DNA of 58,539 nt from Phycisphaerales bacterium (GCA_044377725.1 JBILYM010000001.1:1-58539), one strand, 5' to 3'; counted from the first letter of the stretch, positions 8,649-41,871 are shown. The notes: generated by a model not told the origin, from the sequence alone. A program made the numbers and translations.

Positions 8649-10178
8649 TCAAGGATTACGAAGTACGCACGGTCCTGAATCGGTTGACGCGACTTCAAGA
8701 ATGAGAATGCGTGCGCTCGAAGGCTTGTTGGTCCGGACCCGCCGGGTAGCACCGGTTGCTCGCTCTGGATAAGGGATTCGTACTGCGGCATCAGTCCAAG
8801 ACTCGTCGTCGTCACCGTTCCCGCCCGTCGATGGTTTGCGGACGAATAAATCGACGCTATCAGACGGGTTCTCCGACAGGACAGCGATGATCCGTGAACC
8901 ATCACTCACTCCGTTTGTGGGGTGGTACTCGTCCTGATATCCAGTATCCCCTAAGCGCGCCATCTTCCACCCGACGAGTACGTCGTGCTCATTCTCGCGC
9001 AGCAATTCGATCAGCGCTCGTAGGCCTGTTGGGTTTCCCCAAGAGGGGATCATTGTCTCGAACAATTGACATGGGTCCAATGGGATCCCATCGGTAATCA
9101 CTTTCTCAGTTTCTGCTTGCCCGAGGATTTTTCGCACGCGTAGCGTGGGGCTGCTGCTGGTTGTGTTTGGTGCGTCTCCGATGCCAACGAGCCGGGGCGT
9201 CGACGATCCAATATCAGACGTCGTGAATGGACCGCCTGCGCAATCAGTCACCGTCGGCACGACTGGGATTTGCATCCATCCACCGACGCCCTTGGATGGG
9301 TCTCCTGCGGCTTTAGTGACCTCGGTCTTCACCAATTGGTTTCGGGTATCGGCCTGCTCAACCACGGTGGAACTCAGAGATGTTCCCACTCCCGCCGAAG
9401 TCCATGAATCCGCCGCAAACTTGAGCGTCTTGAATTCGCTTAGCAATTCTTGTTGCGCAGTGATGTTCGCTACGACCAATGACGATGCCCCGGGAATGTG
9501 ACGGAATGCCGATACTGGCAATTGGAAGTGGGATAGTGGTTGGAGTGGATCGCCGTTGGCGATCGCGATCAACTCAACGTCCACGTTGGTTTCGGAATCA
9601 CCAGGTAGCAAGGCATTCCATTGTGTTACAAGCCAGTCCGCACTGTCGAAATTGATGATTGTTGCGTTGCTGCTCCACAGCGCCCCACGGACGAACGGCA
9701 ATGTGCGCGGCCCGTTAGTTTCTGAGGTTTCACGGGGCTCCGCGTTGTCCGGGACTATCGGAGGCTTTTTGTTGGTCGGTTCAGGATTGGAGCTCTCATT
9801 TGGATTCGCTTCCGGTGGGCTGTTCGATGGTGGCGCCCCGCCACCGCTTCCGCCGCCACCGCTTCCGCCACCGCCGCTTCCGCCGCCACCACCGCCTCCC
9901 CCACCTGCTGGTGGGGGTACTTCACCCCGACTAGGCGTCTTTTGCGGCAAGAGTCGTGGCAGTGGGGCCCGTGGTGCGGCAGTAAGCGCGGGCGCGCGCG
10001 GTCCGGCTTTGTTGTTTCCGTTTCCCGAGCCTGGTGGCAATGAAGGGTTAACCTCTTCTGGCTTTTTTTCAAGTTCCGGCAGAACGGGCGGTTGTGGATC
10101 TGCAGCTTGATGCGCGATTGCAGCAGGCTGCATGGCGAGGGAAATTGCAAGAAGCGCCACGCTGCAAACTCGGTTCAT
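8649..10178 (-). CDS. Hypothetical secreted protein with a Pro-rich N-terminal region and a (G4S)n-like glycine linker
   Basis: Signal peptide MNRVCSVALLAISLAMQPAAIAHQ, taking the start at 10178 rather than 10289. It contains the run GGGGGGGGSGGGGSGGGGSGGG. The C-terminal ~330 aa have no recognisable motifs. Confidence 0.55.
   Translation of the reverse strand: MNRVCSVALLAISLAMQPAAIAHQAADPQPPVLPELEKKPEEVNPSLPPGSGNGNNKAGPRAPALTAAPRAPLPRLLPQKTPSRGEVPPPAGGGGGGGGGSGGGGSGGGGSGGGAPPSNSPPEANPNESSNPEPTNKKPPIVPDNAEPRETSETNGPRTLPFVRGALWSSNATIINFDSADWLVTQWNALLPGDSETNVDVELIAIANGDPLQPLSHFQLPVSAFRHIPGASSLVVANITAQQELLSEFKTLKFAADSWTSAGVGTSLSSTVVEQADTRNQLVKTEVTKAAGDPSKGVGGWMQIPVVPTVTDCAGGPFTTSDIGSSTPRLVGIGDAPNTTSSSPTLRVRKILGQAETEKVITDGIPLDPCQLFETMIPSWGNPTGLRALIELLRENEHDVLVGWKMARLGDTGYQDEYHPTNGVSDGSRIIAVLSENPSDSVDLFVRKPSTGGNGDDDESWTDAAVRIPYPERATGATRRVRTNKPSSARILILEVASTDSGPCVLRNP
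9841..9900 (-). repeat. 15-nt x ~4 in-frame tandem repeat encoding the GGGGS-type linker
   Basis: The + strand reads ccaccgcttccgccg / ccaccgcttccgcca / ccgccgcttccgccg / ccaccaccgcctccc. Confidence 0.8.
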
Positions 10179-10261
10179 TGATCGGGCCAGCCAGATTCGT
10201 CGTTTGGTACGCACGGTTACTCGTCCTCGGAATGGCGTTGCATCGTCCCAATGGCTTGTGA

Positions 10262-12286
10262 ATGGTACACTTTCACCTAATGTGGGCAAGTTCGCACAAA
10301 CTCCGGTGCAAACGCTTCGGCGTGTTGGTGGTCGGCGTGATCCTTGCAGGGCTGATGCCGCTCATCGGTTGTTCTGATGATTCGAGCTCGAGCGCCGGGC
10401 GCAAGACTGTCTGGGTTCCTACTGAGACATCGACGAAACACGCCCAAGAGCGATCAATAACAGCAGATGAATTGGTGACGTCAGCGGCTTCGCCGGAGTC
10501 TCAATTCAAAGCTCGGCGTGCATGTGCATTTGCGGCACACGAATTGCCTACCGTCCTTCGCGCCGGTGATCAAAGTCCTTGGCGTGCCCAAGCCTTGACT
10601 CAGTCAGTTGATCTTGCCTGCCATACAGGCACTCCCATTGATTCAATTCGCGCTTTACTTGCAGATACCGCGATCGTGACAGACCCATTTGCCATGGGCG
10701 TTCTGCGCAATAATTTAGGCTGCGCCATTCTTTCGCAATCAGCAGTTGGGGATGCGGTTGACGCCGTTGACCCTGCCATCATCGAGTCTGCCCTTGCGGA
10801 GTTCGAGGGCGTATGCCAAGTACCCGAAGCTCCCCTGAATGAGGCGGCTTGTCATCTCTGGCTCGCGCGCCTGCGACCGTTAGAGGCCGACGCGCACATT
10901 CGTCTAGCACAAGCGGCGCTCAATCGATTAGATGCGGACGAACTGAGTTGTCCAATGCGTGCGGGCCAATTCCTCGGAGTTGTTGGTGCAGGGGAGCGTC
11001 TTGCGTTTGTGTTGGACAGTTCACAAAGCATGGTGGGTCCGCCCTTAGATGGGCTGAAGTCTGCCGCTAAGCAGGCTATTCATCGACTTTTGCCATCATC
11101 GGCATTTATGGTGAGCTTCTTCGGCGATGACGCGACGGTAATGCCTATCCCGTCTGGTGCAAACGTCGATAGAGGTATGTTGATTCGAGGATCATTCTCT
11201 CCTGAGCGGGATGCAAGCATGGTGGCTTGTGATGAATGGATCACACGTCACAGTGCGAGTGGCGACACTTACCCACTGAATGCTCTGCGTGCCGTTGCCG
11301 CGGCGAAGCCCACTCAAGTGTTTCTGTTTACAGACGGCTTGATTGATGATGACACGGGTGAAGTTGCACGTATTGCAGATGAATTCGCGTCAATGCACGC
11401 GCGCATAGACGTCATTATCCTTGCCAATGAGAAGCTTGCGAAGGCGGGATGGTCAGTCGAAGACATCGTTCGGGTTCCGCGTTATCTCGCAAGTCGGACT
11501 GGCGGAGTCGTTCGGCTGATCGGCGAGGCTGGCTCGACGGGCAATGTTTCTTCGGCATGGCTCTCTGGATTTTCGATTCGGAACGCGGCAGAGCGTGACG
11601 GGATGTGGACGCCGGCCGTGGCTCGGCAGTACGCAGTCCTTGTCGCGTCGGTGAATCTATGGAAGCACACGCTCGATCCGTCATGGAAGCTTCCTGCAAC
11701 TACGGCCGAGGGATGCACGTCAGCACTTCGTTCACTGGTGCCGGATCCGGTTACAAGTGATGCTGGGCCTAGCCGACAGGATTGGCAACTCCTGATGATC
11801 GAGGGCGCGGCTCGTTGTAGTTTGGGAGATCCCGCTGCCTGGAAGTCCTTTGACGAAGCAGCAGAAATCTTGTCGGCATTGGCTCTATCTGCTGCCGAAA
11901 TTGGCGAGTCTGCTACCGAGGATCACTACAGTGAACTCTGCGCGCGGGCTGTACTTCTCTCGGCGCTAGCGAAGCCCGAGCGCTTCCAAGCAGCATCAGC
12001 CAACGCCGCGCTCAAGAGGCTCGATTTGTTGCACATCAAACACGGTTGCTGGAGTGTGCAGCTTCTTGAATCCGTCAATTCTTGGTTTCCATCAAGGTGT
12101 ACACGGTCCTTGAAGCCAGACCACTTACCAGATGCACTTGCTTTGCAGGAGTTCGCAGCAATTCACCGCATCGTGTTTGGCGGCGAACCGGCGTCTCCGG
12201 CAGATATGTCCGGGGCACCGATAGCCGACAGAGTTGTCTTTAAGTTCGCACAAGATCGCAGCGCATCGCTGGCGCAAACACCATGA
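10262..12286 (+). CDS. Locus gene A: lipoprotein with a von Willebrand factor A (vWA) domain
   Basis: Lipobox-like LMPLIGC follows a basic n-region. The MIDAS motif DSSQS lies at 11015-11029 within LAFVLDSSQSM. Downstream are SGDTYPLNAL and VFLFTDGLIDDD, the Thr and Asp MIDAS elements. The C-terminal half is helical and unassigned. Confidence 0.75.
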   Translation: MVHFHLMWASSHKLRCKRFGVLVVGVILAGLMPLIGCSDDSSSSAGRKTVWVPTETSTKHAQERSITADELVTSAASPESQFKARRACAFAAHELPTVLRAGDQSPWRAQALTQSVDLACHTGTPIDSIRALLADTAIVTDPFAMGVLRNNLGCAILSQSAVGDAVDAVDPAIIESALAEFEGVCQVPEAPLNEAACHLWLARLRPLEADAHIRLAQAALNRLDADELSCPMRAGQFLGVVGAGERLAFVLDSSQSMVGPPLDGLKSAAKQAIHRLLPSSAFMVSFFGDDATVMPIPSGANVDRGMLIRGSFSPERDASMVACDEWITRHSASGDTYPLNALRAVAAAKPTQVFLFTDGLIDDDTGEVARIADEFASMHARIDVIILANEKLAKAGWSVEDIVRVPRYLASRTGGVVRLIGEAGSTGNVSSAWLSGFSIRNAAERDGMWTPAVARQYAVLVASVNLWKHTLDPSWKLPATTAEGCTSALRSLVPDPVTSDAGPSRQDWQLLMIEGAARCSLGDPAAWKSFDEAAEILSALALSAAEIGESATEDHYSELCARAVLLSALAKPERFQAASANAALKRLDLLHIKHGCWSVQLLESVNSWFPSRCTRSLKPDHLPDALALQEFAAIHRIVFGGEPASPADMSGAPIADRVVFKFAQDRSASLAQTP

Positions 12287-15174
12287 CACACACTCGACAG
12301 AACATGATTCGCCTCGTCCCGAATTGCGGTATCCAGTATTTACAGCTCCAAGATATTTCGCTGAAAGATCTGCTTGCTCATCAGTTCAGCGCCCGGGTGA
12401 AAGTCGCTCCGGAGGGGAGTCTGTCTGTGATCGCACCACTTGCGCCTCGGGCTCGCTCCAGTGCGAGCGTGACAGATGAGTTCAGCGATGATCAGCTTGA
12501 TTTAGAAGGGGCCCCAAAACTCAAATCCCGACTTGCCGATATGTCGGTGCTCAATCAGTTGCTGGCCGCATCGCCCGATGGCGTTTGGCTTCCGGTCCCT
12601 TATGACGCTGGCGGTCTTTGGGTTACGGTGTTTCTTGCCCTTCAAGATGGCAAGGACCAGCGCGTCTCTGTTTGTCTCGCCGTTGAGACGACCCTCGACT
12701 GTGATGGATGTCCGGAAGGGCTAGCCGCGGACGAACTCGGCGAGCGCGTACCGGATCCATGTGGTCCAGTCTTTTGGGGCACCGACGCCGCGCGTCAATC
12801 CATTCGCGCGATCACATCCGGTTTAAAGTCGCCTGGATCTCGGCAGGCGATGGACGCTGCACAGTTGGCCATTGCGGGTCTCGCTAGTTACCTGAACCAG
12901 CACGGCATGGCCCGATTGCACTTCGATGCTCGCCCGGAAGAACGCCTTGCAGTTGGTGTTGATGTGATTGTCGACCTTGGCAACAGCCGAACATGCGTTC
13001 TCTTAGTTGAGCAGCGCGAAGGGGGTCGCCGCGAAAGTCTGCAGTTGGTTTATCCCGATGATCCTCTAAACGCGGTTAAATGTCCCTTCTTGACACAGTC
13101 GGCATTTGTTGAGCATGAGATTCTGCCGCGCTCAGTGGAAGGAATATTTAGTTTTCGATTCCTGTCAATTATCAAAATGGGCCAGCCGGCTCTCGATGCC
13201 CTACTCCGTTCGAAACGGGATGTTCGCCCGCTTGGAATCAGTACTCCAAAGCGTTATCTTTGGGAAGACAAGGAAAGGGTTGCGTGGGAATGGCGATGCG
13301 CGAATCGCGAGGATGAACAGCAAATGTCGCCGCGTATTCACGGTGATGTCCTCCGGCGAATGAGTCCACGGAATCCGCTTACAAAGGCGCCCGAGATCGC
13401 GGGTGTCCCGGCGCAGCCGGACTATCCACGTGCGGCTTGCATGGTCTGGTCGATGGTGGAAATCCTTGAACAGGCATTTCGGCAGGTGAATTCGCCTGAA
13501 TGGCGACGCGCGGCGGCCAATGCGCCACTCGCGGAGCGGCGGCGGCAGATTCGCAATTTAGTCATCACTTACCCAGTTGGGTTCCATAGCGTTGAACTTG
13601 AGAATCTAGACAAGGCTGCATCGCGCGCCGCTCGGCTTTGGTCTGAATTCCGATCAGCCCCCGAAGCCTTTTGTTCTGGCGTCGATCACATTACGGTTGA
13701 CCGCGACTTTGGTATGCGACCACCTGTAGTTCAGCTCGTTTGCGATGAGGCGGTTGCGATCCAAGTCTGTTGGCTGTATGGCGAGTCAATGCATCGGTTC
13801 CAAGCCGATCCCGATCTGCTCATCGGGGCACTGGGTCGTCGTCGTAAGGATGTCGACACACTGCGCATGGCGTCTTTGGATATCGGTGGTGGAACTATCG
13901 ACCTTGCTATTTCTGATTACACAGTGAATGGGAACATGCGGGCTGCCGTGGCATTCCAGTGCAAGACGCTCTTTCATGACGGCATCAGTCGTGCTGGAGA
14001 TGATGTTGTGCGTGGCATCCTGGAAGAAGTGGTTTTCCCAGCGATCATCCGGCAGTGCAAAATCACGGTCCAGCGATGGAATGAGGTGTTTGCATCAACG
14101 TCGACCCCGAACGACGAAGTGCGAGAACTGCGGCAGCGCCTCGTGCGCGAGGTGTGGATGCCAGTGGCGATGCACTGCCTCTCCACATTCGAAGCGAGTG
14201 AGGGTGCGCCGGTGCGATTTGAGATTGGGCATGCGTGCAATAATCTCAGCATCCTTGACGCGCTACAGACTCGTGTTTCGGGGGGCACTGCACCTCGAAT
14301 GCAGTTTCGCGATGTGATTATTGAAGCGGACAAAAAGGTGATGAGAGGCATTGTCCGAAATACGATCGGGAAGACGATCTTTCAGTGCGCCGACATCATC
14401 GATCAATTCGACTGCGATTTGATGGTCGTAGGCGGGCGGCCGTCGAGCAACCCGGCGATTCGCGACCAGATCTACGCGTCGATGGCAGTCCCTCCCGGAC
14501 AAGTGTTCTTTCTGTCAGAGTTAGCTGCCGATGATTGGTATCCGTTCGCAGATGGCAATGGACGGATTGGAGACGCGAAAACATGTGGGGTGGTGGGTGG
14601 TTGGCTTGCGTTTGCAGCCCGGCATGGAATGGGGCAATTCATGCTGAACATTGATGATGACGCTGAATCCTCGCGGGAGCATGCGGAGGCCGCACTCATC
14701 ATCGGATACTTAAAAGACGCAAATCCTGCCAACCCTGCGGCTTTCACCAATGATTCCCGAGTCAATTTCGATTCCGACGCGAAGGGATTGGCAGTGATGC
14801 CATTGCAGCCACTGACTATCGCGAGCCGCAGGGTGGATGACCCGCTCGCCGAGGCGCGGCCCATCTATCGGTTATCACTGAAGAAGCAGCACATCGATGC
14901 CCTTCAGCAACAGCTTGGGCTTATGAAAGAGGTTCGAGTGAAGTTTGAGCGAACCGCGCCGCCCCCAAGAGAGGACGTGCAACTTGGAGACCGCATCATG
15001 CCGTCACCGCGCTTTGATCGAATCAGCATCCCGGTAGGCGGTATCGAGGGTACGGTTCCGCCGGATCACCAAGCGGAGGATTGTTTCGAGCTCCGTCCTC
15101 GCACCTTGCTCGACAATGAGGGCTATTGGATCGACACAGGCATCTTTCGTTCAGTGGACAAGGGCGACGCATAA
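12283..15174 (+). CDS. Locus gene B: SrfB-like actin/Hsp70-fold ATPase (963 aa)
   Basis: Phosphate-1 motif DLGNSRT (12973-12993), phosphate-2 motif LDIGGGTIDLAISDY (13879-13905) and adenosine motif LMVVGGRPSSNPAIRDQI. Its size and the N-terminus LVPNCGIQYLQL resemble the SrfB family as I remember it. ATGA overlap with gene A. Confidence 0.7.
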   Translation: MTHTRQNMIRLVPNCGIQYLQLQDISLKDLLAHQFSARVKVAPEGSLSVIAPLAPRARSSASVTDEFSDDQLDLEGAPKLKSRLADMSVLNQLLAASPDGVWLPVPYDAGGLWVTVFLALQDGKDQRVSVCLAVETTLDCDGCPEGLAADELGERVPDPCGPVFWGTDAARQSIRAITSGLKSPGSRQAMDAAQLAIAGLASYLNQHGMARLHFDARPEERLAVGVDVIVDLGNSRTCVLLVEQREGGRRESLQLVYPDDPLNAVKCPFLTQSAFVEHEILPRSVEGIFSFRFLSIIKMGQPALDALLRSKRDVRPLGISTPKRYLWEDKERVAWEWRCANREDEQQMSPRIHGDVLRRMSPRNPLTKAPEIAGVPAQPDYPRAACMVWSMVEILEQAFRQVNSPEWRRAAANAPLAERRRQIRNLVITYPVGFHSVELENLDKAASRAARLWSEFRSAPEAFCSGVDHITVDRDFGMRPPVVQLVCDEAVAIQVCWLYGESMHRFQADPDLLIGALGRRRKDVDTLRMASLDIGGGTIDLAISDYTVNGNMRAAVAFQCKTLFHDGISRAGDDVVRGILEEVVFPAIIRQCKITVQRWNEVFASTSTPNDEVRELRQRLVREVWMPVAMHCLSTFEASEGAPVRFEIGHACNNLSILDALQTRVSGGTAPRMQFRDVIIEADKKVMRGIVRNTIGKTIFQCADIIDQFDCDLMVVGGRPSSNPAIRDQIYASMAVPPGQVFFLSELAADDWYPFADGNGRIGDAKTCGVVGGWLAFAARHGMGQFMLNIDDDAESSREHAEAALIIGYLKDANPANPAAFTNDSRVNFDSDAKGLAVMPLQPLTIASRRVDDPLAEARPIYRLSLKKQHIDALQQQLGLMKEVRVKFERTAPPPREDVQLGDRIMPSPRFDRISIPVGGIEGTVPPDHQAEDCFELRPRTLLDNEGYWIDTGIFRSVDKGDA

Positions 15175-15179
15175 TCACA

Positions 15180-15980
15180 ATGCTCCCTCCTGATTCAAAC
15201 GCTCCTCTGTCGGTCGGTGCCCCATCATTCCATGCGGCCCAAGAACGCTATTGGCGACAGTTGTACGAGCGTTTCAGCTCGCCATTCGGCCAACAGCAGC
15301 AAATGGTCGAGTTTGATTCCCTGAACCGGGAGGTGACCATGAAGGCTTCCGCGTTCGTTGCAGATCGCGGCCTCCGCATGCCGGAGGATGGGATCGTCGA
15401 GGGACTTGATGTTGCATTTCCGAACGCGTTGCCACGCCATACAAGTCCGCCCGAGTCGATCGCGGGTCCGCTGGCCACTGGTAGCGGCGATCTCCTCTCG
15501 CGATTAGGCCTTGGGGATGCAGAAAAATTGTGGCCGCCTTCGCAGATATCGCGGCTTCAGGTCTTTGCCGAAGAGGCCGAGGCGATTGAGCGACTGTGGG
15601 CATCTCATGCGGACCTCAACCGATCGAGAGATGAAACCGGTGAAGTTGGTCGCATTCGATCACGCCGTGATGAGGCGATTCGATTTATCTCGGCACGATT
15701 TTATGTCGAGTTTCGGGCCGCTGGGATTCCGAACGCGGTCATTGATTCAGTCGCGGTTTCTTTCGCGCGCCGGCTCGAACAGTCGCTCTGCGAGACGAAC
15801 GAGTCAGTTATTACCGTACAAACCGGCACCCGATTCAACTCTGTTAAGCATGAGACACCGGCATCCGGTGGACAGCTGGCGGGCGTTGCTCCGTTAACTT
15901 TCGGACTTGTACGTGACGGCTCGGTCGTCATGCGCATCCCGGTAGAGCCATTTAGCGGTCCCGCGGGAGTTCCACAGTGA
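15180..15980 (+). CDS. Locus gene C: soluble protein with a GrpE-like C-terminal signature (putative nucleotide-exchange partner of B)
   Basis: The C-terminus [16 protein letters not shown]...[18 protein letters not shown] parallels the GrpE pattern G.xFDPxxHEA...GYxxxGRvlRPAxVxV, and it is preceded by charged helices. ATG at 15180 lies 5 nt after the stop of B. The CDS call is firmer than the GrpE assignment. Confidence 0.55.
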
Positions 15981-18136
15981 TTGAAGTACTTGAACCAGGG
16001 CAAGTCCTCATAGAGATCCCGGGACATGGGCCGATCTTGCAGTTTACGGATTATCTCAATAGGCAATTTGGTGGCATGCTCGCTGCTGGCAGGCAGGTGC
16101 AACAAGGACATGCGCGCGCGGTGGATTGGCAGATAGACGGATTGCAGCGCCTCGATTCAAAAGATCCTCGGGTGATTCGAGCGACCGTAACCTTACAAGC
16201 ATCTCTGCAGCGGGTCAGCGCAGCTATTGAGGAAATTAGCCTGTTGCTGACGGCCTCGCGTGCGGACCGCATTCGTATCCACAAAGCGCTTTCTTCAGCG
16301 ATCGGTGGACGTGGACAGGCTGATGCTGTCTACCAACGGTCGGAAGTGGAGCACTTGCGAATGGTCAATCGCCTCGCGGCGTCCGGCGTGCAACGGGCGA
16401 TTGCGCGCGGGGAATTTTATGGGGATGGTCACAAGGTTGTTCTTCGTGGATGGGCCATTCTTCCATTGGAACTACAACCCCCACCCACTCAAGGCCCGGT
16501 TGAGGTTTCTGGATCGATGGGATTGGCGGAGATGGTCGATGGGCGGCCGGTTCACGTCGTTGTGTGGCACACGAGTGGTCCCGCTACGTCGGTGCAGTTG
16601 TATGAGTTCGATTCATCCAACAACCTAGTGCCAGTCGAAGGAACAAACGAGTCAGTATCGGGAAATCCCGGCTCTGGTCGTTGGCGCTTTGCTTCGGAGC
16701 GCCTGCCAACGGGTAAGCAACTCGTCGTGGCAGCCTATGGTGCCGATTCTGAAACGCGATCGACGCCGTTTGTGGTCGAGGGTGTTCTGGTCACACCCCC
16801 GGCGGTGCCGCTCGTCGATGTGCCGCCAGTCGTTGTGCCACCAGTCGCTGTGCCACCAGTCGCTGTGCCACCAGTCACTTTACCGCCTTTTGGTGGGCCC
16901 CCAGTGGTGGTAACGCCACCTATCAAAGTTAAGGAGTATGTTCCCGAGCGACCACGAAGCGCTCGGTGGTGGATATTGGCAGCAGTCCTTGCGGCGATTC
17001 TCATGTTGCTTTGGCTTCTTTGGTTCTTTATGCCTGGGCGACCAGTCTTCGGCTGGAGTCCGGAGTTCTTTACGGCACAACACGTGGTGTTGCCAGAGGC
17101 CGAACACGTCGCCGAGGGGCGCGGCCGGATTATTTCTGCGGATCCACCTGTTAGTCCGCCGACTGATGATCTGCCTGAATCTTCCCCGTTGTTACCGAAT
17201 GGCGGGGCGCGGGTAGCAGTCACGCCGACACCGGCGGGCTCGGTAACGCCCCATGAACCCGTTGATTTGGGTCCTGCAGATCAAGTTCGTCGCCGTCGGG
17301 TAATCCCGACATACGTTGATCGTCCGGCGCCAGAGTCAACACCCGAGCCCGAGTCAACACCCGAGCCAGAGCCAGCACCCGAGCCCGAGTCAACACCCGA
17401 GCCCGAGTCAACACCCGAGCCAGAGCCAGCACCGGAGCCAAAGCGAGCACCCGAGCCAGAGCCCGCATCGGAGCTGGCACCAAAGCCAGCGTCAGCACCT
17501 GAACAGGCGCCAGCGCCTGAACCCGCAGCGGCGTCTGAGCCGGCGCCAGCGCCTCTGGCTCCCCCGAATCCTGGTGGATGTGAGATCCGATTCGAGCCAT
17601 CCCTGCGTACATGGTGTTTAGGCGATGACGGTCCGTGCCAACTACGTATTGGGATTGAACTTGATCAACTTGCTCCTGGATTCATCCAGTGGGCTGAAGG
17701 GGCTGGCTTGGAATTGATTGGTGGCGGAGAAAGTAATGCGAAGGCGAAGTTCGCCATCGACCCTGCACGGATGGCCGCGCTCTCTTCCGACAGTCACTTT
17801 GACGGAATGGGTGTTTCAATTGTCGCTGAGCCAGGGCGCATCATGGTCACCGGTCAAGCGTGGCGACCGATAGCGATCATGTCCCACAGGGTCGGAGACA
17901 GCTCGGTGTGTCGTGGGCGTATTGAAGGAGTTCCCATGGGAACTAAGGAATCCCTTGTATCGCTGGATTCCGCCACTGGAACACGGGAGCTGCGCGGTGA
18001 CTTTGCTTCCGATGTCTGGCGACTGGTGGTGGCAGGAAGCGTTGGTCAACAATCACTGCGCTTCTCGGCGTGTGACCGGACTGTCGTCAGTGCGCCTTTC
18101 ACTATTGTGGTACTGCCAACGGGGGCACAGAGATGA
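15977..18136 (+). CDS. Locus gene D: single-pass membrane protein (N-in) with VPPV and PE(S/T)-rich repeats flanking the TM helix
   Basis: GTGA overlap with C. The TM helix [21 protein letters not shown] is preceded by basic residues. (VPPVA)4 lies before it and [18 protein letters not shown] x2 after it. The ~200-aa C-terminal ectodomain has no recognisable family. Confidence 0.65.
16820..16879 (+). repeat. 15-nt x 4 in-frame tandem repeat (VPPV[VA])
   Basis: gtgccgccagtcgtt / gtgccaccagtcgct / gtgccaccagtcgct / gtgccaccagtcact. Confidence 0.85.
17333..17440 (+). repeat. 54-nt x 2 near-perfect in-frame tandem repeat, built of 18-nt E(S/P)(T/A)PEP subunits, degenerating downstream to about 17560
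   Basis: 17333-17386 and 17387-17440 differ at two positions. The repeat encodes [18 protein letters not shown]. Confidence 0.85.
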
Positions 18137-19191
18137 CCGCCAACCAAGTGTGGGCGGTGGTCCGTGAGCCGGCTGCAGACCTAGCAAAGGATGCATTCGG
18201 AGTCCCAGTTGTTGCTCGTAGTGAGTGGGTGCGCGTGTTTCTTGGGCGCTCGTTTACGTTCTCGCAAGTGAACAGGGACGGCTCTGGCGTGGAGTACTTG
18301 GTGTTCGGTTCATGTTCCCAAGCAGCCACGGCGTCGGAGAGATTGCGGACGTGGTTGGATGCGGACTTTGCAACACTCGAGACATTGGTCGAGCGCCATC
18401 GTGAACTCATTCGTTCACCAGAAACTCGGCCCGATTCAGCAATCTTGGTCCGGGCCTATGCGACACTTCGTCATGTCAACGTACCGACTGATCCACTCGA
18501 CTGGCTTGTTACCGACGAGGGGCTAGCGATTGTTCGATGGGGCTTGTCATCGGTCGGGCGGCCGCTTTTGTCATGGACATCCAAGGAGCTTCAGGAGCAG
18601 AAGGAAGCGATATTGCGGAATAACCCGCATCTTCGTTCTGCGACAGGGCCCTTGCCACCGCTATCGGCATCTGCGCTGGATGTGGCAGCGGCGATCGGAG
18701 TGGATGTGGCGGCGCAGATCAGTCGAGACGCGAAGGTTGTAGACCTTGAAGGTCGGGTGAAGCGTCGCGACATTGCAGTGAAGGAACGAGACGCAAAGAT
18801 TTTGCAAATCCAATCATCATTAGATCGGTGTCTCAAGAGTAATCAGGCGAAAGCGAGCGCTGACAAACAGCGCGAAGCAGAGCAAGCGGCGGAAGTAGTC
18901 GGCGAGGGAGTGTCCGCTCCGGAGCCAGTATCGAGGCGATCCTTGTTAGCCCGTCCGTGGTGGTTCTGGACCGCCGAAGCCGTTGTTGTTTGCGTCGCCC
19001 TGATCATTACTTGGCTCGTGGCCCAGTCCATGGCGCCCTCCGCGATGCCCAAGTCTGCTGAAGGGTCAACGCCTGTTGCTCCTGTTACCAGTCCGAGTTC
19101 ACCGAAGCCGGCGCCCAATCCCAAGACCGGCTCCTCCATTTCTAAATCCGCTCACACTGAAGACCAGACTAAATCGCGATTAATACTATGA
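18133..19191 (+). CDS. Locus gene E: membrane-anchored protein (cytoplasmic domain, coiled coil, C-proximal TM helix, short Pro/Ser-rich tail)
   Basis: ATGA overlaps on both sides (with D and F). The TM helix is [24 protein letters not shown]. No recognisable family. Confidence 0.6.
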
Positions 19192-29067: not shown

Positions 29068-29958
29068 ATGAAGGGCATGCATAAGTTGAGAACCGCGGGA
29101 ATCAAGTTTATCGCGCCCTTGCTATCGCTCTGCCTATATGGGTGCAGTTCGGGTGAGGGTCAGAAGCGCAATTGGGAGCTTATCGACAAGAGATCTGAGT
29201 GGAAGTCGTGCGCCCTCTCGATTGATCTGAAGAGCGGAAAGCTAGCAGACGGCACCACGACGGAGTACTGGCGTACCAAAGGGGGATGCCTTGAGTTCAA
29301 GTTAGAACTCGGCGTATATGACAGTGTGGATCGTTGGTTTGTCTACTCATGTACTGAGTTGAAGTCGGGCAAATTGTTCGGCTCATCCACAGAGCGAATG
29401 GTGGTGACAGATCCTCCGGGGCGCCCTTACATTGGTGCGTCAACAAAGGCGAACGCAGATGAGATCGTCGGTATCACGCGAGAGAAGGCGGGACCTTCAA
29501 CTGTTCCGCTGTCACTCACGGACTACCCGATACTCTACGAGTGGCAGGTGCAGGTCTTCGAGGGTCCTTCGGTAGCGCGAACCTGGTTGAAGCGTGATGA
29601 TGCTCGCGTGGTGCTCTCTGGTGGCCAAGTCATTTCCTCGGAAACATTGAAGATCCAGAAGTTGAATCTGTGCGAGAAGGAGATGACGGCAATGCTCCTC
29701 CGACCCGCTGACAAATTCCACGTTATCTTTCGGGTGTCTCCTCAGAACTGGACCGACTCGACAAGAGCCACCACGGAGCCCTTGATCTATCGAACGCGCG
29801 TGATTATCACGCGGGAGGTTCTTGAACGAGAGTTGGCTAATCAGGTCAAGGGACCTGCTGATGGCGGTTCCCCAGAGTCTCCATCGACCCCGGCCAAAAA
29901 AAACGCCGGTCGCCGATGGCAAGACAAACCCTGGGGCGGCGACCCCCTAAGGCTATGA
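29068..29958 (+). CDS. Locus gene J: lipoprotein, function unknown
   Basis: Signal and lipobox IAPLLSLCLYGCSSG. RBS GGAGG lies upstream. No recognisable family. Confidence 0.6.
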   Translation: MKGMHKLRTAGIKFIAPLLSLCLYGCSSGEGQKRNWELIDKRSEWKSCALSIDLKSGKLADGTTTEYWRTKGGCLEFKLELGVYDSVDRWFVYSCTELKSGKLFGSSTERMVVTDPPGRPYIGASTKANADEIVGITREKAGPSTVPLSLTDYPILYEWQVQVFEGPSVARTWLKRDDARVVLSGGQVISSETLKIQKLNLCEKEMTAMLLRPADKFHVIFRVSPQNWTDSTRATTEPLIYRTRVIITREVLERELANQVKGPADGGSPESPSTPAKKNAGRRWQDKPWGGDPLRL

Positions 29959-31031
29959 CCTCCCCGACCCAGCGAGCAGTGTTTGGTCGCTTGAGCGGCG
30001 AGCAGGCATGGTTGAGTGGGTCTTCGCCCGTATTCGTGGGGCGGAACCGGGATCGGGATTGGCTGGAGCAACTGTTCCCGATACTCAAGTCACGAAGTGT
30101 CCAAGACATGTCGGATTGGGAAGGGCGACAGGGGGCGACATTTATCCGTCGCATTGAAGGACACTGGCTTGTTGTTCATTCCCACATGCCGCGTGATGCG
30201 CGCGGTGTTCCCCTATGGATCGCACTTGCGATTGATGAGAAGTCGATCACCAGCAGTCTGGTATTGAACTCTGCAATTGAAGCAGTGCGTGCAGCCCGTA
30301 TTGATCCTGCTGGCTGGCTCGCCGAGTCTCGGGAATTGCTGATCGCCCCGTGGGACGCCCAGCAGATGCCTGGTCCCCTGTCGGCCTTACTAGCAAGAGT
30401 TCGAGAATCGCCAGCGAGTGGTCAGGTTGAATTGCCCGCATCCTTTCTCTCTAGTCAAGGCGTGGCGGCGCTCCAGGTAATGTTGGCGTCGACCGCTGGT
30501 GCTGGCGACACGGAGTTTGCCGCAATCATTGCGTACGAGACGGATTGGGAAGTTCCACCAGAGTGTGAATGGCCTTCACATTGTCTTCTGTTTCGGGAAG
30601 GCCTCGAGCAACTGCACCCATCTCCGGCAGAATTTGTCCGAGGCATCCCGGCGGGGCGCATGATGTCCGGCATGGCGAAAACGATTGATGCGCTGTCGGT
30701 GGTGTGTCGTGGTGCCCCCTCGGTTTCTGACTGGTCCCTCTCCGCCGCATTGCATCCGGTGACTCCACTCCATTTGGTCTCACACGGGCAACTAGAGGCG
30801 TCGGAATGTGCGAAGTGGGCCGAAGCCATATGCCTGGAGTCTGGTAGTGCTATGCCAGCGCGGATAAAGTCACTTGTTCAAGCAGCCCTTGGTGGTGATC
30901 GGACCGCCATTCGACCGTTAGTTCACTTGATTGCCACAAGCCCAGCGGCATCGTTGAACAGTGATCCGAGACAAATTCAGGCATGGATAGCGCCTTTATG
31001 CCAGCTCCGACCGCGAACAGCAGTAGACTGA
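29955..31031 (+). CDS. Locus gene K: soluble hypothetical protein
   Basis: The ATG at 29955 forms an ATGA overlap with the stop of J; the ORF-track start at 29916 is an upstream extension. No motifs recognised with confidence. Confidence 0.55.
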   Translation: MTSPTQRAVFGRLSGEQAWLSGSSPVFVGRNRDRDWLEQLFPILKSRSVQDMSDWEGRQGATFIRRIEGHWLVVHSHMPRDARGVPLWIALAIDEKSITSSLVLNSAIEAVRAARIDPAGWLAESRELLIAPWDAQQMPGPLSALLARVRESPASGQVELPASFLSSQGVAALQVMLASTAGAGDTEFAAIIAYETDWEVPPECEWPSHCLLFREGLEQLHPSPAEFVRGIPAGRMMSGMAKTIDALSVVCRGAPSVSDWSLSAALHPVTPLHLVSHGQLEASECAKWAEAICLESGSAMPARIKSLVQAALGGDRTAIRPLVHLIATSPAASLNSDPRQIQAWIAPLCQLRPRTAVD

Positions 31032-31116
31032 GTTTCGATAGAGTTGCTGTCTGCTGTTCTTGACATTCTCAAAGCGGCATCCGGTTTTGCCCTTGCATTG
31101 GCCGGGAAGGAACTTC

Positions 31117-32202
31117 ATGAAAGAGCCACGAAATCTGACTTCTACGGCGTGGTGCAAGGCGGCCTGTGTGGTTGCCCTTGCAGCGTCGGCACTCACACCG
31201 ATTGCGTTTTCTCAAGCGACAAAGAAGCCGCCCGCCGTTGCTACGGTAGTTCCACCAGCCTTTGACACACTTAAAATCATCCCGGTGGACGGGTGTCCAT
31301 GCGGTAGTTATAAGCCGAATGATGTTGCGGAGAAGCGCTATCAGGAGTCACGTCAACTTACGGCGGCGGGCAAATTTGAAGAAGCACTAAAGGCTGCCAA
31401 TGATGCCTTAGGCTTCGACAAAGGTCCTATTTATCGCAATCAACAAGCCGTTGCACTTTTCAACCTAGGTGTTGCGCGGGCAGGCATTGCGGGTGACAAG
31501 AAGCGCATTGACGAGGCACTACGGGTTTGGCAACAGATGTCTCGCGGTAAGAGTGTCGCCTGCGAGATGACCTTCTACGCCAATGCACTCTGTCGGCTGC
31601 AGCGATGGGATGAAGCTCTGAAAATTGCAGATCGAGCCATTGCCGATTGCAATGTGAGTGCTGACGCCAAGGTCGCAAAGTCCATCGCCCTGCAGTATCT
31701 CGGTCAGGCGCCGGATGCCCTCCGCTTTGCGGACCAGGCAATGAAACTGGATCCCAAGTCGGTGGCTGCGCTCTACCAGTATGCATCGTGTTGTTACGAC
31801 CTTGCGAAGTACGAGGATGCCCTGCGTGCGGTCGCGCTCGCGATTGGACTTGATCCTGCCGATGGCCAAAGTCGAACGCTGCTTGCCATGGTCCATCTTG
31901 CACTGAAGCATCCCGCCGAAGCTCAGGCAAACGCAATTCAGGCCGTTGGGATGACCTCCGACCCCGCATTCCTCATGGCGGCGGGGGGAGTGCTTTCGGA
32001 ACTTGGTCAGTATCAGCAGGCGGCAGCCGCATACGACAAAGCACTGCAGGCTGGATTTGATCCAGCCGCCATGTATGCGCGTGCAGTGGCTCTGCATGCC
32101 GCCGGCAACCGAGCGGAGGCAGTCAAGGTGCTCCATGATTTGGAAACTCAGTCAGCCGGTTATCTCAATGTTCAGGAGTGGCTCAAAGCGCTTGGTGGCT
32201 AA
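31117..32202 (+). CDS. Locus gene L: exported tetratricopeptide-repeat (TPR) protein
   Basis: GGAAGGA RBS lies before the ATG at 31117. The signal peptide is AACVVALAASALTPIAFSQA. Multiple 34-aa A/L/Y/G-patterned repeats are present (for example AEKRYQESRQLTAAGKFEEALKAANDALGFD and ALKIADRAIADCNVSADAKVAKSIALQYLGQAPDALRFADQAMKLDP). Confidence 0.75.
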   Translation: MKEPRNLTSTAWCKAACVVALAASALTPIAFSQATKKPPAVATVVPPAFDTLKIIPVDGCPCGSYKPNDVAEKRYQESRQLTAAGKFEEALKAANDALGFDKGPIYRNQQAVALFNLGVARAGIAGDKKRIDEALRVWQQMSRGKSVACEMTFYANALCRLQRWDEALKIADRAIADCNVSADAKVAKSIALQYLGQAPDALRFADQAMKLDPKSVAALYQYASCCYDLAKYEDALRAVALAIGLDPADGQSRTLLAMVHLALKHPAEAQANAIQAVGMTSDPAFLMAAGGVLSELGQYQQAAAAYDKALQAGFDPAAMYARAVALHAAGNRAEAVKVLHDLETQSAGYLNVQEWLKALGG

Positions 32203-32270
32203 ACTTCTATTTACGCACTACTCCGTAGCAGTAGAATTTAAGGTCGGGGCCTTTCGCTCCGCTGTATCGA

Positions 32271-33353
32271 ATGCCTGACGACGATTTTGACATCGATCTT
32301 TCTCCAGAGGTGCCACCGCCGTTCGACTGGAGCGCGGTACAGAGTCCACAGCTGGATCTGGGGGCTATAGCTCCTCCTCCTCCTCCGCATGGCGCTCCGG
32401 GCACTCATGGGGCGCAAAGTCAAGTCCCTCCCGCGCCGTTCGTGCGAGACCGTATTGTCGTGCTTGGTCGGCGAAAGGCTGGCAAGTCGGTGTACTTGGC
32501 ACGCCTATACGAGCGTCTGTGGAACTCAAAGGGTGAGCTGCACATGGCGGCGGTCGATGGGCGAACACATACGTCCTTGCTGCTTCAGATCGATGCGATG
32601 ATGAAAAAGCTATGGCCAGCGGCGACGGAAGCCATGGCGCATTTCAAGGTGGACATTACCTATCGACAAGATCGGTATTTGATGATTGCCCCCGATTATC
32701 CAGGTGAAATCTTCAAGCGTGCATTTATGGAGGATTCGGACGAGCCGCTTGTTAAGGATCTCTTGGAAACGTGTGATCGCGCCGCAGCTGTCATCGTCTT
32801 AGTGGATCCGGAGGTCAATATCACCGGGAATTTGATGGAGCAGACTGAGCAGGATTATGGTTTGGTAGCAGCGATCAAACGGATTCGTGAGTCGCCTGGC
32901 GCCGAATTCGTCCCTATCGCGATCACGTTGACGAAGTGTGATGTCTTCCGAGCAGAAATCGAGGAGGCAGGAGGGCCAGCGAAGTTCGTCAAGGAGAATT
33001 ATCCCAATCTCTGTCGTGTGGCGTTTCCGGCGGGGCGTAGCGGAATGGTCTTCGCGTGTGCGGCTGTTCACGTGAAGCGCGACGGTATGGAAAAAGAGAT
33101 TCCGGATATGTCCAAGCCGCCCAAGGGTTTGATCGAGCCCATTGAATTCTGCTTGCGTGCAATGCGCGCCAATCGGCGAGAGTCACAGCAGCGTCAAGCG
33201 GAGAATGCGCAACGAGTATCGGTAGAGGCCGCTCGTGTTGCAGAACAAGAACTTGAGCGGAAGGATCGATTTGTCTCAACCGCAACTTTATTGGGATCGA
33301 TATTTGTGGCGATCGTTGTGGTGGTAATCCTTGTCGTCATGTTGATGAAGTAG
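32271..33353 (+). CDS. Locus gene M: tail-anchored TRAFAC-type GTPase
   Basis: G1 GRRKAGKS (32466-32489), G3 MIAPDYPGE and G4 ITLTKCDV. The C-terminal TM helix is TLLGSIFVAIVVVVILVVMLMK. The N-terminus is Pro-rich. Confidence 0.75.
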   Translation: MPDDDFDIDLSPEVPPPFDWSAVQSPQLDLGAIAPPPPPHGAPGTHGAQSQVPPAPFVRDRIVVLGRRKAGKSVYLARLYERLWNSKGELHMAAVDGRTHTSLLLQIDAMMKKLWPAATEAMAHFKVDITYRQDRYLMIAPDYPGEIFKRAFMEDSDEPLVKDLLETCDRAAAVIVLVDPEVNITGNLMEQTEQDYGLVAAIKRIRESPGAEFVPIAITLTKCDVFRAEIEEAGGPAKFVKENYPNLCRVAFPAGRSGMVFACAAVHVKRDGMEKEIPDMSKPPKGLIEPIEFCLRAMRANRRESQQRQAENAQRVSVEAARVAEQELERKDRFVSTATLLGSIFVAIVVVVILVVMLMK

Positions 33354-33371
33354 TTCTATGGATCGCAACTC

Positions 33372-35618: not shown

Positions 35619-36640
35619 ATCGATGCTGATTTGCCGAGTACCGCAGTAATGCATAGGAGCGACTCCGCGGCAGCGGGGGTCGCGCGGTTCCTGCAGAGCG
35701 GAGGGCTACGCCGATGTCGCTATCCAGCGCTGCGTTAGCGCCACCCCATCGATTGTCGGAAGTCTGCCAACATTTGCTTCAGGCTGTCACCCTGTGAGGC
35801 TGTTGGGCAAACAGCACAAATCAATCCTTCGAACAAATCGTTGCAGGAGATGTCATCGCCTTTGAGTCCAAGAGTTGGCCAATACGAACTGCGCAAGAAT
35901 TTCTGGGTGTCTGGTTGCCTCATCGAGTACTTACTCCAATACACACCCTGTCCCGCCAACCCGCCGTTACTACTTGGGGTAGACGGAAGTAATCGTTGGA
36001 TAACGTTCAGTACATTCTGAGCAGCCCCGACATCATCGCTCGGTCCGGCCGCTACAACTGCTGCCAAAACTCGCTTTATGTCACTCAAATCAGCGGACTG
36101 TGCTACCGCAGCTTTGCTCTGTTCGATGTCAAATCGTTGCGAAACTGATAGCCGCAAACAAAAGTGCATGATGGACCGCATCGTGTCGATCCGCTCTTGT
36201 GATGTCAGATCGGATGCTTTCTTCAGCGAATCTATAATTGACTTGCTCATGCGATCCATGTCTAGCATTTGAGTTTGGGCGAATGGTCGCGGAAGTTCGG
36301 GATAGGTGAACAGCGCCCGGCTCTGGAACTTCAACACACGATCTTGAGCTCGCGATAGTTGCGAGGGACTCCAGAGCTGTAGAGCGTCCATCTTGGCGCG
36401 AAACTCGGCGGCGGCATGGCTGCGCACGGTATTCGGGCTGTCTGGCCACTTTTCTCGAGTATCAAGTTCGCGTTTAGCGTTGATAGCCATGTTTGGTAAA
36501 TCAAACGCCAACGTTCGCTTACCGTTTTTCGCCACTCCCAGTAGTCCGACGAGAGACTTCAGTGCGTCCACTTCTTTCTGGCAAGCCACGTACTCTGGAA
36601 ATTTTAGTACATCCGATTTTCCGATGTCATCACTCAATTT
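34720..36640. repeat. Imperfect ~0.9-kb inverted duplication formed by the 3' ends of convergent genes N and O
   Basis: The protein C-termini are paralogous. At DNA level there is a 39-nt perfect reverse-complement match (35471-35509 vs 35829-35867), and several other stretches differ by only a few substitutions by eye (for example 35171-35235 vs 36105-36170). The antisense ORFs 35030-35227(-) and 36078-36272(+) translate to near-identical peptides. Confidence 0.85.
35659..35683. terminator. GC-rich hairpin in the 116-bp convergent spacer (possible bidirectional terminator)
   Basis: gcgactccgc-ggca-gcgggggtcgc forms about a 10-bp stem with one bulge and one G-U pair. There is no clear U-tract on either strand, so this is weak as an intrinsic terminator. 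Confidence 0.3.
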
Positions 36641-40813: not shown

Positions 40814-40826
40814 CGCCTTGGTTTCT

Positions 40827-41858: not shown

Positions 41859-41871
41859 GGAATCGTCAACA

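Follow-up and report, generated by a model that had tools for sequence, protein, structure and literature searches.

Three adjoining open reading frames on the plus strand occupy positions 10262–15980 of the window (the whole stretch of DNA that was analyzed, 58,539 nucleotides). Gene A (10262–12286) encodes 674 residues, gene B (12283–15174) encodes 963, and gene C (15180–15980) encodes 266, counted from its ATG. Genes A and B overlap in an ATGA (12283–12286). The TAA stop codon of B (15172–15174) is followed by the five nucleotides TCACA and then by the ATG of C at 15180, and C overlaps the next gene, D, in a GTGA (15977–15980). The open reading frames and the sequence agree with the positions, junctions, and motifs that had been given in an earlier, sequence-only reading of the locus. 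All proteins of the window are annotated as “hypothetical protein”. Promoter-like and terminator-like matches between 9800 and 16200 did not rise above the chance level, and an Rfam scan of 8000–37000 returned zero matches.

The genes that follow lie on the same strand. Gene D (15977–18136) encodes a single-pass membrane protein of 719 residues with a TM-like segment at residues 333–351, and gene E (18133–19191) encodes another of 352 residues with such a segment at 283–301. Neither protein had a match in Pfam; orthologs of both were present in four related loci (L007, L008, L091, and L096). Gene F (19188–21941) encodes an SrfC-like P-loop protein (Pfam Virul_Fac, PF10139, E 5.2e-30) with a Walker A motif, GESQCGKS, at residue 70 and with no TM segment or signal. 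The rest of the operon, genes G to N, occupies 21960–35618. It comprises G (829 residues, TM segment), H (213 residues), I (1325 residues; P-loop, TM segment, and, at the C-terminus, a weak FGE-sulfatase-like match), J (a second predicted lipoprotein, with a lipobox), K (371 residues), L (a TPR protein), M (DO-GTPase-like, with a TM segment at its C-terminus), and N (748 residues, TM segment). One TM segment each was found in D, E, G, I, M, and N, and lipoboxes were found in A and J; orthologs of G and I were found in L091. The DO-GTPase1/2 match in M had an E-value of 1e-9, and a weak one was seen in I. No GAP1 was detected in the plus-strand operon. Directly downstream, on the other strand, lies a canonical GAP1-N2 system (DO-GTPase, GAP1-N2, and GYF proteins), in which DO-GTPase2 (E 1e-5) and GAP1-N2 (E 5e-15) were matched. 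Genes A, B, and C form the 5′ end of an SrfB/SrfC-type system with multiple NTPases that spans the envelope and comprises 14 genes in ca. 25 kb; it is probably from a planctomycete.

Gene A and the extent of the conserved unit

The lipoprotein assignment of A was made by motif reading; a positively charged n-region, a hydrophobic h-region, and a lipobox of the form [LVI][ASTVI][GAS]C were sought. The N-terminus of A, MVHFHLMWASSHKLRCKRFGVLVVGVILAGLMPLIGC(37)SDD, is made up of an n-region, an h-region, and a lipobox. The charged n-region, the hydrophobic h-region, and the lipobox are all present (KLRCKRFGVLVVGVILAGLMPLIGC), and the signal peptide with its lipobox LIGC (Cys37) was placed at 10262–10372 (plus strand) from the sequence and the hydrophobic segment. 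Orthologs of A were found in L001 (40% identity) and L096 (E 3.5e-34). Upstream extension of their open reading frames revealed the lipoboxes LLAGC (L001, LLLAGC) and LVGGC (L096, VLVGGC). Because the lipoprotein signal is conserved in three lineages, A is predicted to be exported and not to be a cytoplasmic adaptor.

Sub-threshold Pfam matches and the motif place a probable vWA domain, its MIDAS complete (D252xSxS256, T336, D358), at 10997–11422 (plus strand). Its elements are D252-S-S-Q-S256, G334-D-T336, and T357-D358-G359. Three vWA profiles were tested (PF13768, PF13519, and PF00092). Against A, VWA_3 (E 2.5e-4, 21.6 bits) and VWA_2 (E 2.4e-3, 18.9 bits) both scored below the gathering cut-off of 27; the L001 ortholog independently gave 20.6 bits for VWA_3, 18.7 for VWA_2, and 14.1 for VWA, which are likewise sub-threshold. 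In L001, D252-S-S-Q-S256, T336, and D358 are all unchanged from the window's A, and L096 has DQSGS. The MIDAS strand of A was aligned by BLAST with an annotated VWA protein of the Cereibacter SrfB operon (E 0.001); a PDB sequence search with A gave no vWA match. Gene A had been described as a vWA lipoprotein in the sequence-only reading. The conserved MIDAS and lipobox uphold that description and the Pfam scores fall short of it, so that A is graded as a probable vWA lipoprotein with a metal-dependent (MIDAS) domain. Its site of action would be the outer face of the cytoplasmic membrane, where it most likely binds a ligand or a partner.

The same reading had joined A, B, and C into a dedicated chaperone-like triad, which did not withstand comparison with related operons. 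Gene A was not found upstream of SrfB in six of the ten that were examined (L091–L095 and the P0157 contig), yet these retain B, C, D, E, and SrfC. SrfC, the product of F, is retained wherever a related operon extends as far as its position. What is conserved as a unit runs from SrfB through C and the membrane proteins D and E to SrfC and beyond; it is not A, B, and C. Gene A is a lineage-specific add-on that opens the plus-strand operon in this lineage. A single machine in which clients reach the ATPase B through A, its adaptor, and C serves as the GrpE of B is accordingly very improbable. The ATGA coupling of A to B is repeated in L096, and MoxR ATPases of related systems have vWA proteins as their co-chaperones or adaptors, both of which would suit such a machine; against it stand the missing A genes and the placement of an exported A beside B and C, which have no signal. 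What the locus shares with MoxR-vWA ternary systems is a conflict-type island in which the gene of a chaperone-like ATPase adjoins one for a vWA protein whose MIDAS is intact. The locus lacks a MoxR AAA+ ATPase, and its vWA protein is an exported lipoprotein, whereas theirs is a cytoplasmic co-chaperone. A vWA partner had also been thought to fall outside the description of SrfABC, a view contradicted by a 2026 preprint in which vWA genes are reported to flank srfABC operons.

Gene B and its pairing with gene C

The assignment of B to the SrfB family is secure. Pfam PF07520 (SrfB) was matched with an E-value of 1.3e-94 and 318.5 bits (cut-off 27.1), and the match spanned B residues 215–955 and profile positions 239–991 of 992. 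All 32 relatives of B carried PF07520. Three nucleotide-binding motifs, all on the plus strand, were located: phosphate-1, DLGNSRT (residues 231–237; 12973–12993); phosphate-2, DIGGGTIDL (residues 533–541; 13879–13905); and adenosine, VVGGRPSSNP (residues 715–724; 14425–14454). Conservation was assessed in an alignment of 21 SrfB proteins with identities down to 21%. Invariant throughout were D231, G233, N234, and T237 in the first motif, D533, G535–G537, T538, and D540 in the second, and G718 and P720 in the third, where S721 and P724 were nearly so. The conservation of these key residues is far beyond chance expectation, and the ASKHA patterns DxGxxxT, DxGGGTxD, and GGxP occur in B in this order. 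In PDB profile searches, phosphate-2 of B was aligned to the phosphate-2 motifs of FtsA (E 1.8) and MreB (E 6.7), and the Hsp70-like Ssz1 was a further match (E 0.19); none of these is significant. The motifs and the non-significant PDB matches suggest that B is an ATPase of the actin/Hsp70 (ASKHA) fold, and the earlier description of B as SrfB-like with Hsp70/actin motifs was borne out. No signal peptide or TM segment was seen in B, which is predicted to be cytoplasmic and is probably catalytically competent. A query of genomes with the single protein identified a near-identical relative of the B locus on one MAG contig.

How often a C-like gene follows an SrfB-like gene had been raised as a check. 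A member of the C family or a positionally equivalent gene lay 3′ of SrfB in all ten contexts examined, and in every one the two genes either overlapped by 4 nt or were at most 15 nt apart. Genes after SrfB were matched by the C-family HMM with E-values of 2e-58, 4e-17, 2e-6, 3e-6, and 3e-4. The family is tiny (four matches in 5.8e9 proteins; 18 clusters in 1.84e9, or 1.84 billion, representatives), and its members are named only “hypothetical protein” in the sources. Searches of Pfam, NCBIfam, and PADLOC with C gave nothing but a noise-level match to DUF7917 (E 0.08–0.1), and no signal or TM segment was seen in the protein. C is a dedicated, fast-evolving, co-translated cytoplasmic partner of B. 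The coupling of C to D is conserved in related operons as well; since C is as tightly coupled to D as to B, it could equally be a partner of D. A separate candidate, that C is a rearranged piece of SrfA, was rejected: with the unnamed gene upstream of Cereibacter SrfB standing in for SrfA, phmmer comparison of the operon proteins with canonical srf neighbors detected nothing beyond the similarity of B to SrfB and of F to SrfC.

Comparison of C with GrpE

In the sequence-only reading, C was held to be GrpE-like, on account of two strings (residues 216–225 and 241–255) that resemble the GrpE consensus. An AlphaFold2 model of C was computed from an 18-sequence alignment (pLDDT 75 overall and >90 for most of residues 100–260). 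The architecture predicted for residues 128–259 (15561–15956, plus strand), helices and then a small beta domain, is GrpE-like. When the model was submitted to Foldseek against the PDB, ranks 1–10 were all GrpE (E 0.019–0.5, prob 0.16–0.63), from E. coli, human (GrpEL1), Thermus, and Geobacillus, and M. tuberculosis GrpE appeared at rank 21. With an earlier, poorer model, the GrpE structure 1dkg had already appeared at rank 11. No match reached an E-value of 0.001, global TM-scores were 0.18–0.41 with rmsd >20 Å, and the helical part of C also matched an unrelated helical protein, 2gsc (TM 0.52).

GrpE sequences for comparison were taken from a metagenome scan (80 loci); a scan of viral contigs had given two loci. 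The register proposed in the sequence-only reading was recovered by hhalign over 125–128 colinear columns, nearly all of GrpE; the counterpart in GrpE is residues 50–194 (128 columns, P 0.24). These alignments had P-values of 0.2–0.6 and probabilities of 0.1–0.3% (P 0.21–0.24 and 0.25–0.28%, respectively, with a 68-sequence GrpE alignment). The real score was reached by 2–6 of 100 shuffled decoys, for which the mean aligned length was ca. 9 columns, and a reversed GrpE profile scored 14.2 against C, compared to 14.7 for the real one. Among 14 members of the C family or positional orthologs, none matched Pfam GrpE (PF01025) at E ≤ 10, and PDB profile searches with alignments of C returned no GrpE, only noise (an uncharacterized protein, E 0.11, and TFIIB, E 0.18). 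The profile check that had been suggested for C thus came out negative. The GrpE signatures compared were the helix motif AxxENxRRR, FDPxxHxA, and GYxxxxRxxRPAxV. In the hhalign register, A67, E70, N71, R73–75, D150, P151, A156, R183, and R186 of GrpE face non-conserved residues of C. Full agreement is confined to G177/G242 and V190/V255 (GrpE/C), with H154/H224 in partial agreement, and the two conservation profiles are uncorrelated (rho 0.007).

As a pattern, the likeness between the C strings and the GrpE consensus is real; judged by sequence, it lacks statistical significance. What stood of the GrpE claim is the Foldseek ranking and the hhalign register; the Pfam searches, the PDB profiles, and the signature residues went against it. 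Structurally, the model of C is best read as a GrpE-like partner of B. By sequence, C is no recognizable member of the GrpE family and would be an analog or an extremely remote relative of it. The two hints, from structure and from sequence, are only partly independent, since AlphaFold may have reproduced a pattern that is already weakly present in the sequence.

A comparison with DnaK-GrpE points both ways. As in that pair, the gene of a putative actin/Hsp70-fold ATPase adjoins that of a small protein with a predicted helical stalk, helical pair, and small beta domain, for which GrpE is the best PDB match, and the order of secondary structure in the model (helices, then strands) follows the colinear hhalign alignment. 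In contrast to DnaK, B is an SrfB and not an Hsp70, with 963 residues, no PF00012 match, and 295 residues from phosphate-1 to phosphate-2; in contrast to GrpE, C has neither a GrpE Pfam or profile match nor the signature residues. That C is a genuine, extremely diverged nucleotide-exchange factor of the GrpE type, dedicated to an SrfB-family ATPase, is judged rather unlikely. It is also possible, if doubtful, that C is a lineage-specific scaffold or adaptor, a generic helical bundle with beta hairpins that tethers SrfB to D and E, with a coincidental likeness to GrpE and no role in exchange. Such a scaffold would accord with the negative or marginal outcome of every GrpE sequence test, the absent signature residues, the sub-threshold Foldseek statistics and low TM-scores, the match to 2gsc, and the conserved coupling of C to D through their GTGA overlap. 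It leaves unaccounted for that all ten top PDB matches, from four organisms, belong to a family predicted beforehand from the sequence, that the hhalign alignment is colinear across almost the whole of GrpE, and that the neighboring gene encodes a probable Hsp70-fold ATPase when modules of Hsp70 and GrpE exist in related conflict systems.

Related systems, proposed mechanism, and significance

The locus was compared with the canonical srfABC operons of Salmonella, Xenorhabdus, and Haemophilus. In both, SrfB (PF07520) and SrfC (PF10139) are encoded in the same order in one operon, and vWA and FGE-sulfatase-type proteins are encoded nearby (in H. parainfluenzae, X. stockiae, and a Cereibacter plasmid). 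The differences are several. No SrfA homolog was found among the operon proteins when the unnamed gene upstream of SrfB in Cereibacter was taken to represent SrfA. Genes C, D, and E lie between SrfB and SrfC, which follows SrfB directly in Cereibacter and Runella. B is ca. 25% identical to the plasmid SrfBs, and the present operon comprises 14 genes, among which two more P-loop NTPases are encoded. These comparisons bear on whether the cluster could be a form of the tripartite SrfABC toxin, in which B and SrfC would be exported toxin subunits and A and C helpers of assembly or export. The homology of B and F to SrfB and SrfC, the cytotoxicity of Xenorhabdus SrfABC when all three parts are present, and the vWA, FGE-type, and lipoprotein-handling genes that accompany srfABC elsewhere are in keeping with a toxin. 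Only B and F are common to the canonical operons, and no homolog of the Cereibacter stand-in for SrfA was found; moreover, the host is probably an environmental planctomycete, the cluster encodes three P-loop NTPases along with numerous single-pass membrane proteins, it adjoins a DO-GTPase/GAP1-N2 conflict system, and the 2026 preprint itself doubts the secreted-effector label. A toxin variant is therefore considered improbable.

A further likeness is to the GAP1-N2 DO-GTPase systems (Kaur, Burroughs, Iyer, Aravind, PMC7159879), in which pairs of Hsp70 and GrpE in GTPase-centered conflict systems were described in 2020. Shared features are multiple NTPases, a membrane-proximal setting, TPR, vWA, and FGE/FGS-type components, a putative Hsp70-fold ATPase with a private cofactor, and the presence of a canonical system of this kind next to the operon. 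The systems differ in that a genuine HSP70 and GrpE occur there and Srf proteins are never mentioned in the paper; the plus-strand operon has no detectable GAP1, and its central NTPases are SrfB and SrfC.

The explanation that is tentatively preferred, at somewhat less than an even chance, is an envelope-spanning SrfB/SrfC system with C as an exchange-factor-like regulator of B and A as an outer-side add-on. The regulatory role is proposed for C because its predicted architecture, a helical stalk and a small beta domain, is closest to that of GrpE. C would dock on the nucleotide-binding lobes of SrfB and control ADP/ATP turnover, and it may at the same time couple B to the cytoplasmic domain of D. 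The whole system would resemble the GTPase/Hsp70-type biological-conflict systems of Kaur et al. 2020. With C as an exchange factor, B would be a regulated switch or motor. The interpretation offered by the sequence-only reading is, overall, partly supported.

SrfB and SrfC are widespread and have been labeled virulence factors or toxin subunits since 2000. To our knowledge, no molecular mechanism has been established for either protein, and we know of no experimental characterization of the conflict systems described in 2020. A conserved, co-translated small partner with the predicted shape of an Hsp70 exchange factor yields the hypothesis that the nucleotide cycle of SrfB is gated by a private cofactor, which would be cheap to examine biochemically. 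SrfB/SrfC proteins are thereby linked to GTPase-centered conflict systems that contain Hsp70 and GrpE (Kaur et al. 2020). Should the likeness to GrpE be coincidental, what remains would mainly interest specialists: a clearly bounded operon architecture with SrfB and SrfC, probably planctomycete and not described before. If C is truly of the GrpE type, SrfB would be the first example of a GrpE-fold client that is not an Hsp70 proper, and SrfB proteins, including those of srfABC, would be cofactor-regulated ATP/ADP switches in envelope-spanning conflict machines, not filaments or toxins.

Operon layout and the SrfB ATPase

A long series of closely packed ORFs was listed on the plus strand of the window between positions 10262 and 35618. 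Gene A (10262-12286; 674 aa) encodes a probable vWA lipoprotein, gene B (12283-15174; 963 aa) an SrfB ATPase, and gene C (15180-15980; 266 aa; start ATG at 15180) a small partner protein. Inspection of the sequence confirmed both junctions described in the sequence-only reading, i.e. the ATGA overlap of A with B and the 5-nt spacer between B and C, and all of the motifs quoted there were located in the three proteins at worked-out positions. A GTGA overlap joins C to the next gene. Because the upstream gene (minus strand, 8649-10289) is divergent, A is the operon's first gene in this lineage. Promoter-like and terminator-like sites were no more frequent in the region than chance would give, and an Rfam scan of the region gave no match.

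Of the plus-strand genes downstream of C, D and E encode proteins with one TM segment each and no Pfam match, and F, after E, is an SrfC homologue (PF10139, E = 5e-30) with a Walker A motif at residue 70. G, which has a TM segment, is followed by H. The product of I (25071-29048; 1325 aa) has a Walker A motif (GFPNSGKT, residue 51) and a single TM segment; its C-terminus gave a weak FGE-sulfatase-like match (E = 0.007). J (29068-29958) encodes a second predicted lipoprotein (N-terminus MKGMHKLRTAGIKFIAPLLSLCLYGC) that matched nothing in Pfam. K lies between J and L, a TPR protein; M (32271-33353; 360 aa), which carries a TM anchor at its C-terminus, matched DO-GTPase1/2 (E = 1e-9), and N has a TM segment. 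A Phycisphaerae MAG contig and other metagenome contigs carry D, E, F, G and I orthologues in identical order. I and M are two further P-loop proteins, which suggests that the operon is a hybrid of SrfBC and DO-GTPase systems.

The proposed SrfB-like identity of B was borne out: residues 215-955 matched Pfam SrfB (PF07520) with an E-value of 1.3e-94, and the motifs of the actin/Hsp70-fold (ASKHA) ATPases are conserved. Thirty-two relatives (27-99% identity) were retrieved by protein search, all with PF07520; one of them (P0170, 37% identity) is labelled as a Phycisphaerae MAG. The sole match in the genome collection, locus L004 (CALQCP020000028.1), shares 99% identity with B and bears the title “MAG: Chitinophaga pinensis”. 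This name is odd given the 55-62% G+C of the window, the Phycisphaerae label on P0170 and domain families typical of planctomycetes, such as 3-keto-disaccharide hydrolase/PA14, and it probably arose from a mistake in binning or naming. Motif conservation was assessed in an alignment of 21 SrfB sequences, including the Cereibacter and Runella plasmid SrfBs at 21-24% identity. The DLGNSRT, DIGGGTIDL and GGRP residues were invariant throughout, the pattern expected for an active ASKHA ATPase. PDB sequence searches with B gave sub-significant matches only, every one of them to an actin-fold protein at a phosphate motif (Ssz1-type Hsp70, FtsA, MreB); the predicted fold of B rests on its motifs.

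The lipoprotein gene A and the upstream border

Residues 246-387 of A matched Pfam VWA_3 and VWA_2 below the gathering score, and the same sub-threshold matches were obtained independently with the orthologue in L001 (a metagenome contig; 40% identical). These two proteins share all MIDAS residues (DxSxS, T and D), and a third orthologue, in the related locus L096, has DQSGS. At the N-terminus of A, a charged n-region and a hydrophobic core precede the lipobox LIGC. For the L001 and L096 orthologues, the gene callers had placed the start further downstream. The in-frame upstream extensions encode the lipoboxes LLLAGC (L001) and VLVGGC (L096); the lipoprotein signal is thus conserved, and A is therefore very probably exported. 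Its proposed role is to bind a ligand outside the cytoplasm.

Ten contexts of this SrfB subfamily were compared. The window, L001-3 and L096 have an A orthologue 5' of SrfB, and none was found before SrfB in L091-L095 and the P0157 contig. In L092-L094 and the P0157 contig, a divergent NfeD1b_N-type gene directly abuts SrfB instead; in L091, such a gene lies one or two genes further upstream. One further contig has a 747-aa gene at the A position that may be an A orthologue. A is outside the conserved core and dispensable in half of the operons. The sequence-only reading had taken A, B and C for a chaperone-like triad. As a functional unit, this triad fails on topology (A has a lipoprotein signal, and neither a signal nor a TM segment was found in B or C) as well as on conservation.

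As mechanically listed, the minus-strand ORF at 8649-10289 shares 28 nt with the beginning of A. It contains a signal-peptide-like segment starting at Met38 (MNRVCSVALLAISLAMQPAAIA), and its true start is therefore probably near 10178. The encoded protein is homologous to that of the upstream gene in L001 (E = 2e-64) and weakly to that of the NfeD1b_N gene in L093 (E = 1e-5). On the P0164 contig, an NfeD1b_N gene was observed upstream of an A-position gene, and the one in L091 stands two genes ahead of SrfB.

Gene C and its likeness to GrpE

Four relatives of C were found in a collection of 5.8 billion sequences, and a profile from five aligned C sequences retrieved 18 clusters among 1.84 billion representatives; every source name was “hypothetical protein”. 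Members of the family occur with this SrfB subfamily only. A distant one in L007 (25% identity) and another in L008 (34%) each lie between an SrfB C-terminus and a D orthologue. The small gene after SrfB in other loci was scored with the C-family HMM, with E-values of 2e-58 (L096), 4e-17 (L093), 2e-6 (L095), 3e-6 (L094) and 3e-4 (L091); that in L092 (E = 0.18) is a C equivalent by position only. B and C are a conserved, translationally coupled pair within a conserved SrfB–C–D–E–SrfC core. The C family is defined by residues ~100 to 260 only; W118, S171, Y175, R179, F241 and G242 are its invariant positions named in the analysis. Residues 1-99 (15180-15476) are poorly conserved, variable in length and modeled with low confidence, and the N-terminal 100 residues are alanine/proline-rich in most relatives.

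C had been read as a GrpE-like exchange factor for B. As a member of the GrpE family by sequence, it was ruled out. Pfam GrpE gave no match at E ≤ 10 in the 14 C members scanned, and PDB profile searches with C returned no GrpE. The hhalign probability was ~0.1% against a three-sequence GrpE alignment and 0.25-0.28% (P = 0.21-0.24) against a larger one of 68 sequences built from metagenome loci. The register was nevertheless that of the sequence-only reading, colinear over 125-128 columns (C 128-259 to E. coli GrpE 50-194). Altered GrpE profiles were also aligned to C as decoys (real score 14.7): column-shuffled decoys averaged 10.3 over ~9 columns, with 2 of 100 reaching the real score, 6 of 100 block-shuffled decoys reached it, and the reversed decoy scored 14.2. 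Along the register, C shows no conservation of the GrpE signature residues, and the two conservation profiles do not correlate.

An AlphaFold2 model of C from five sequences was poor (pLDDT 54), and Foldseek returned noise with it, yet 1dkg (GrpE) stood at rank 11. The model from 18 sequences reached a pLDDT of 75 overall and >90 over most of residues 100-260, with five short strands after the helices at 120-140, 155-180 and 185-203. Against 350,542 PDB chains, Foldseek ranks 1 to 10 for this model were all GrpE (E. coli 1dkg, human GrpEL1 9bls/9blt, a GrpE-DnaK integrative model, Thermus 3a6m and Geobacillus 4ani), and M. tuberculosis GrpE was at rank 21. The E-values were 0.019-0.5 (none below 0.001), with probabilities up to 0.63. 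Global TM-scores of 0.18-0.41 are expected for elongated, multi-part chains and are also compatible with a chance match. The top of the list belongs to one family, which had been named beforehand from the sequence; this was taken as real, though not conclusive, evidence for a GrpE-like architecture of C, which is judged probable. AlphaFold may have picked up the weak sequence pattern itself, so the structural and sequence evidence are not fully independent. Under the main rival explanation, C would serve as a scaffold linking B to the membrane proteins, with an accidental likeness to GrpE. With that architecture, C would contact B and regulate its nucleotide cycle in a GrpE-like way.

Genomic setting and related systems

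In canonical SrfB operons, SrfC directly follows SrfB and nothing C-like is present, whereas C, D and E lie between the two in the window operon. A September 2026 preprint describes vWA proteins, a Lol-like ABC module and an FGE-type enzyme flanking canonical srfABC operons, and models SrfA-SrfB-SrfC as a complex. The same SrfB, SrfC, vWA and ABC arrangement was found on a Cereibacter plasmid. On the Runella plasmid pSP2_1 (L006, 1-17000), an SrfB-SrfC-S8 peptidase operon directly follows a BREX type 1 system (PglZ, BrxL), which argues for a defence-island setting of SrfBC outside pathogens.

A canonical GAP1-N2-type DO-GTPase system (minus strand, 35735-46679) is convergent with the SrfB operon. 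The gene at 43200-45317 encodes a 705-aa protein whose N-terminus is zinc-ribbon-like; a DO-GTPase2 protein (E = 1e-5) is encoded at 41872-43101 and a GAP1-N2 protein (E = 5e-15) at 40827-42008. The system also has two TM proteins, one of 1018 aa (37757-40813) and one with a GYF domain (35735-37648; E = 9e-18), and it matches the planctomycete variant of such systems. Kaur et al. 2020 (PMC7159879) described these systems, with GYF and FGS partners in planctomycetes, and reported a genuine HSP70 plus GrpE theme in 14% of GAP1-N2 neighbourhoods; Srf proteins are unmentioned there. The G+C content of the two conflict-type clusters (10000-46000) is 0.546-0.593, about 3-5% lower than that of the housekeeping-type flanks (0.595-0.621), which is compatible with a horizontally acquired island. 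In L093 (1-3495), the NfeD-SrfB cluster adjoins a ubiquitin-like conjugation set (YukD, ThiF/E1, two JAB peptidases) and an FHA protein; such a set is another hallmark of conflict-system neighbourhoods.

As a whole, the cluster would serve in biological conflict or in surveillance of the envelope. Its kinds of component were already known, namely SrfB/SrfC operons, vWA accessories and, in conflict systems, Hsp70+GrpE modules; in a literature search, neither the operon of this SrfB subfamily nor any GrpE-shaped SrfB partner was found described.
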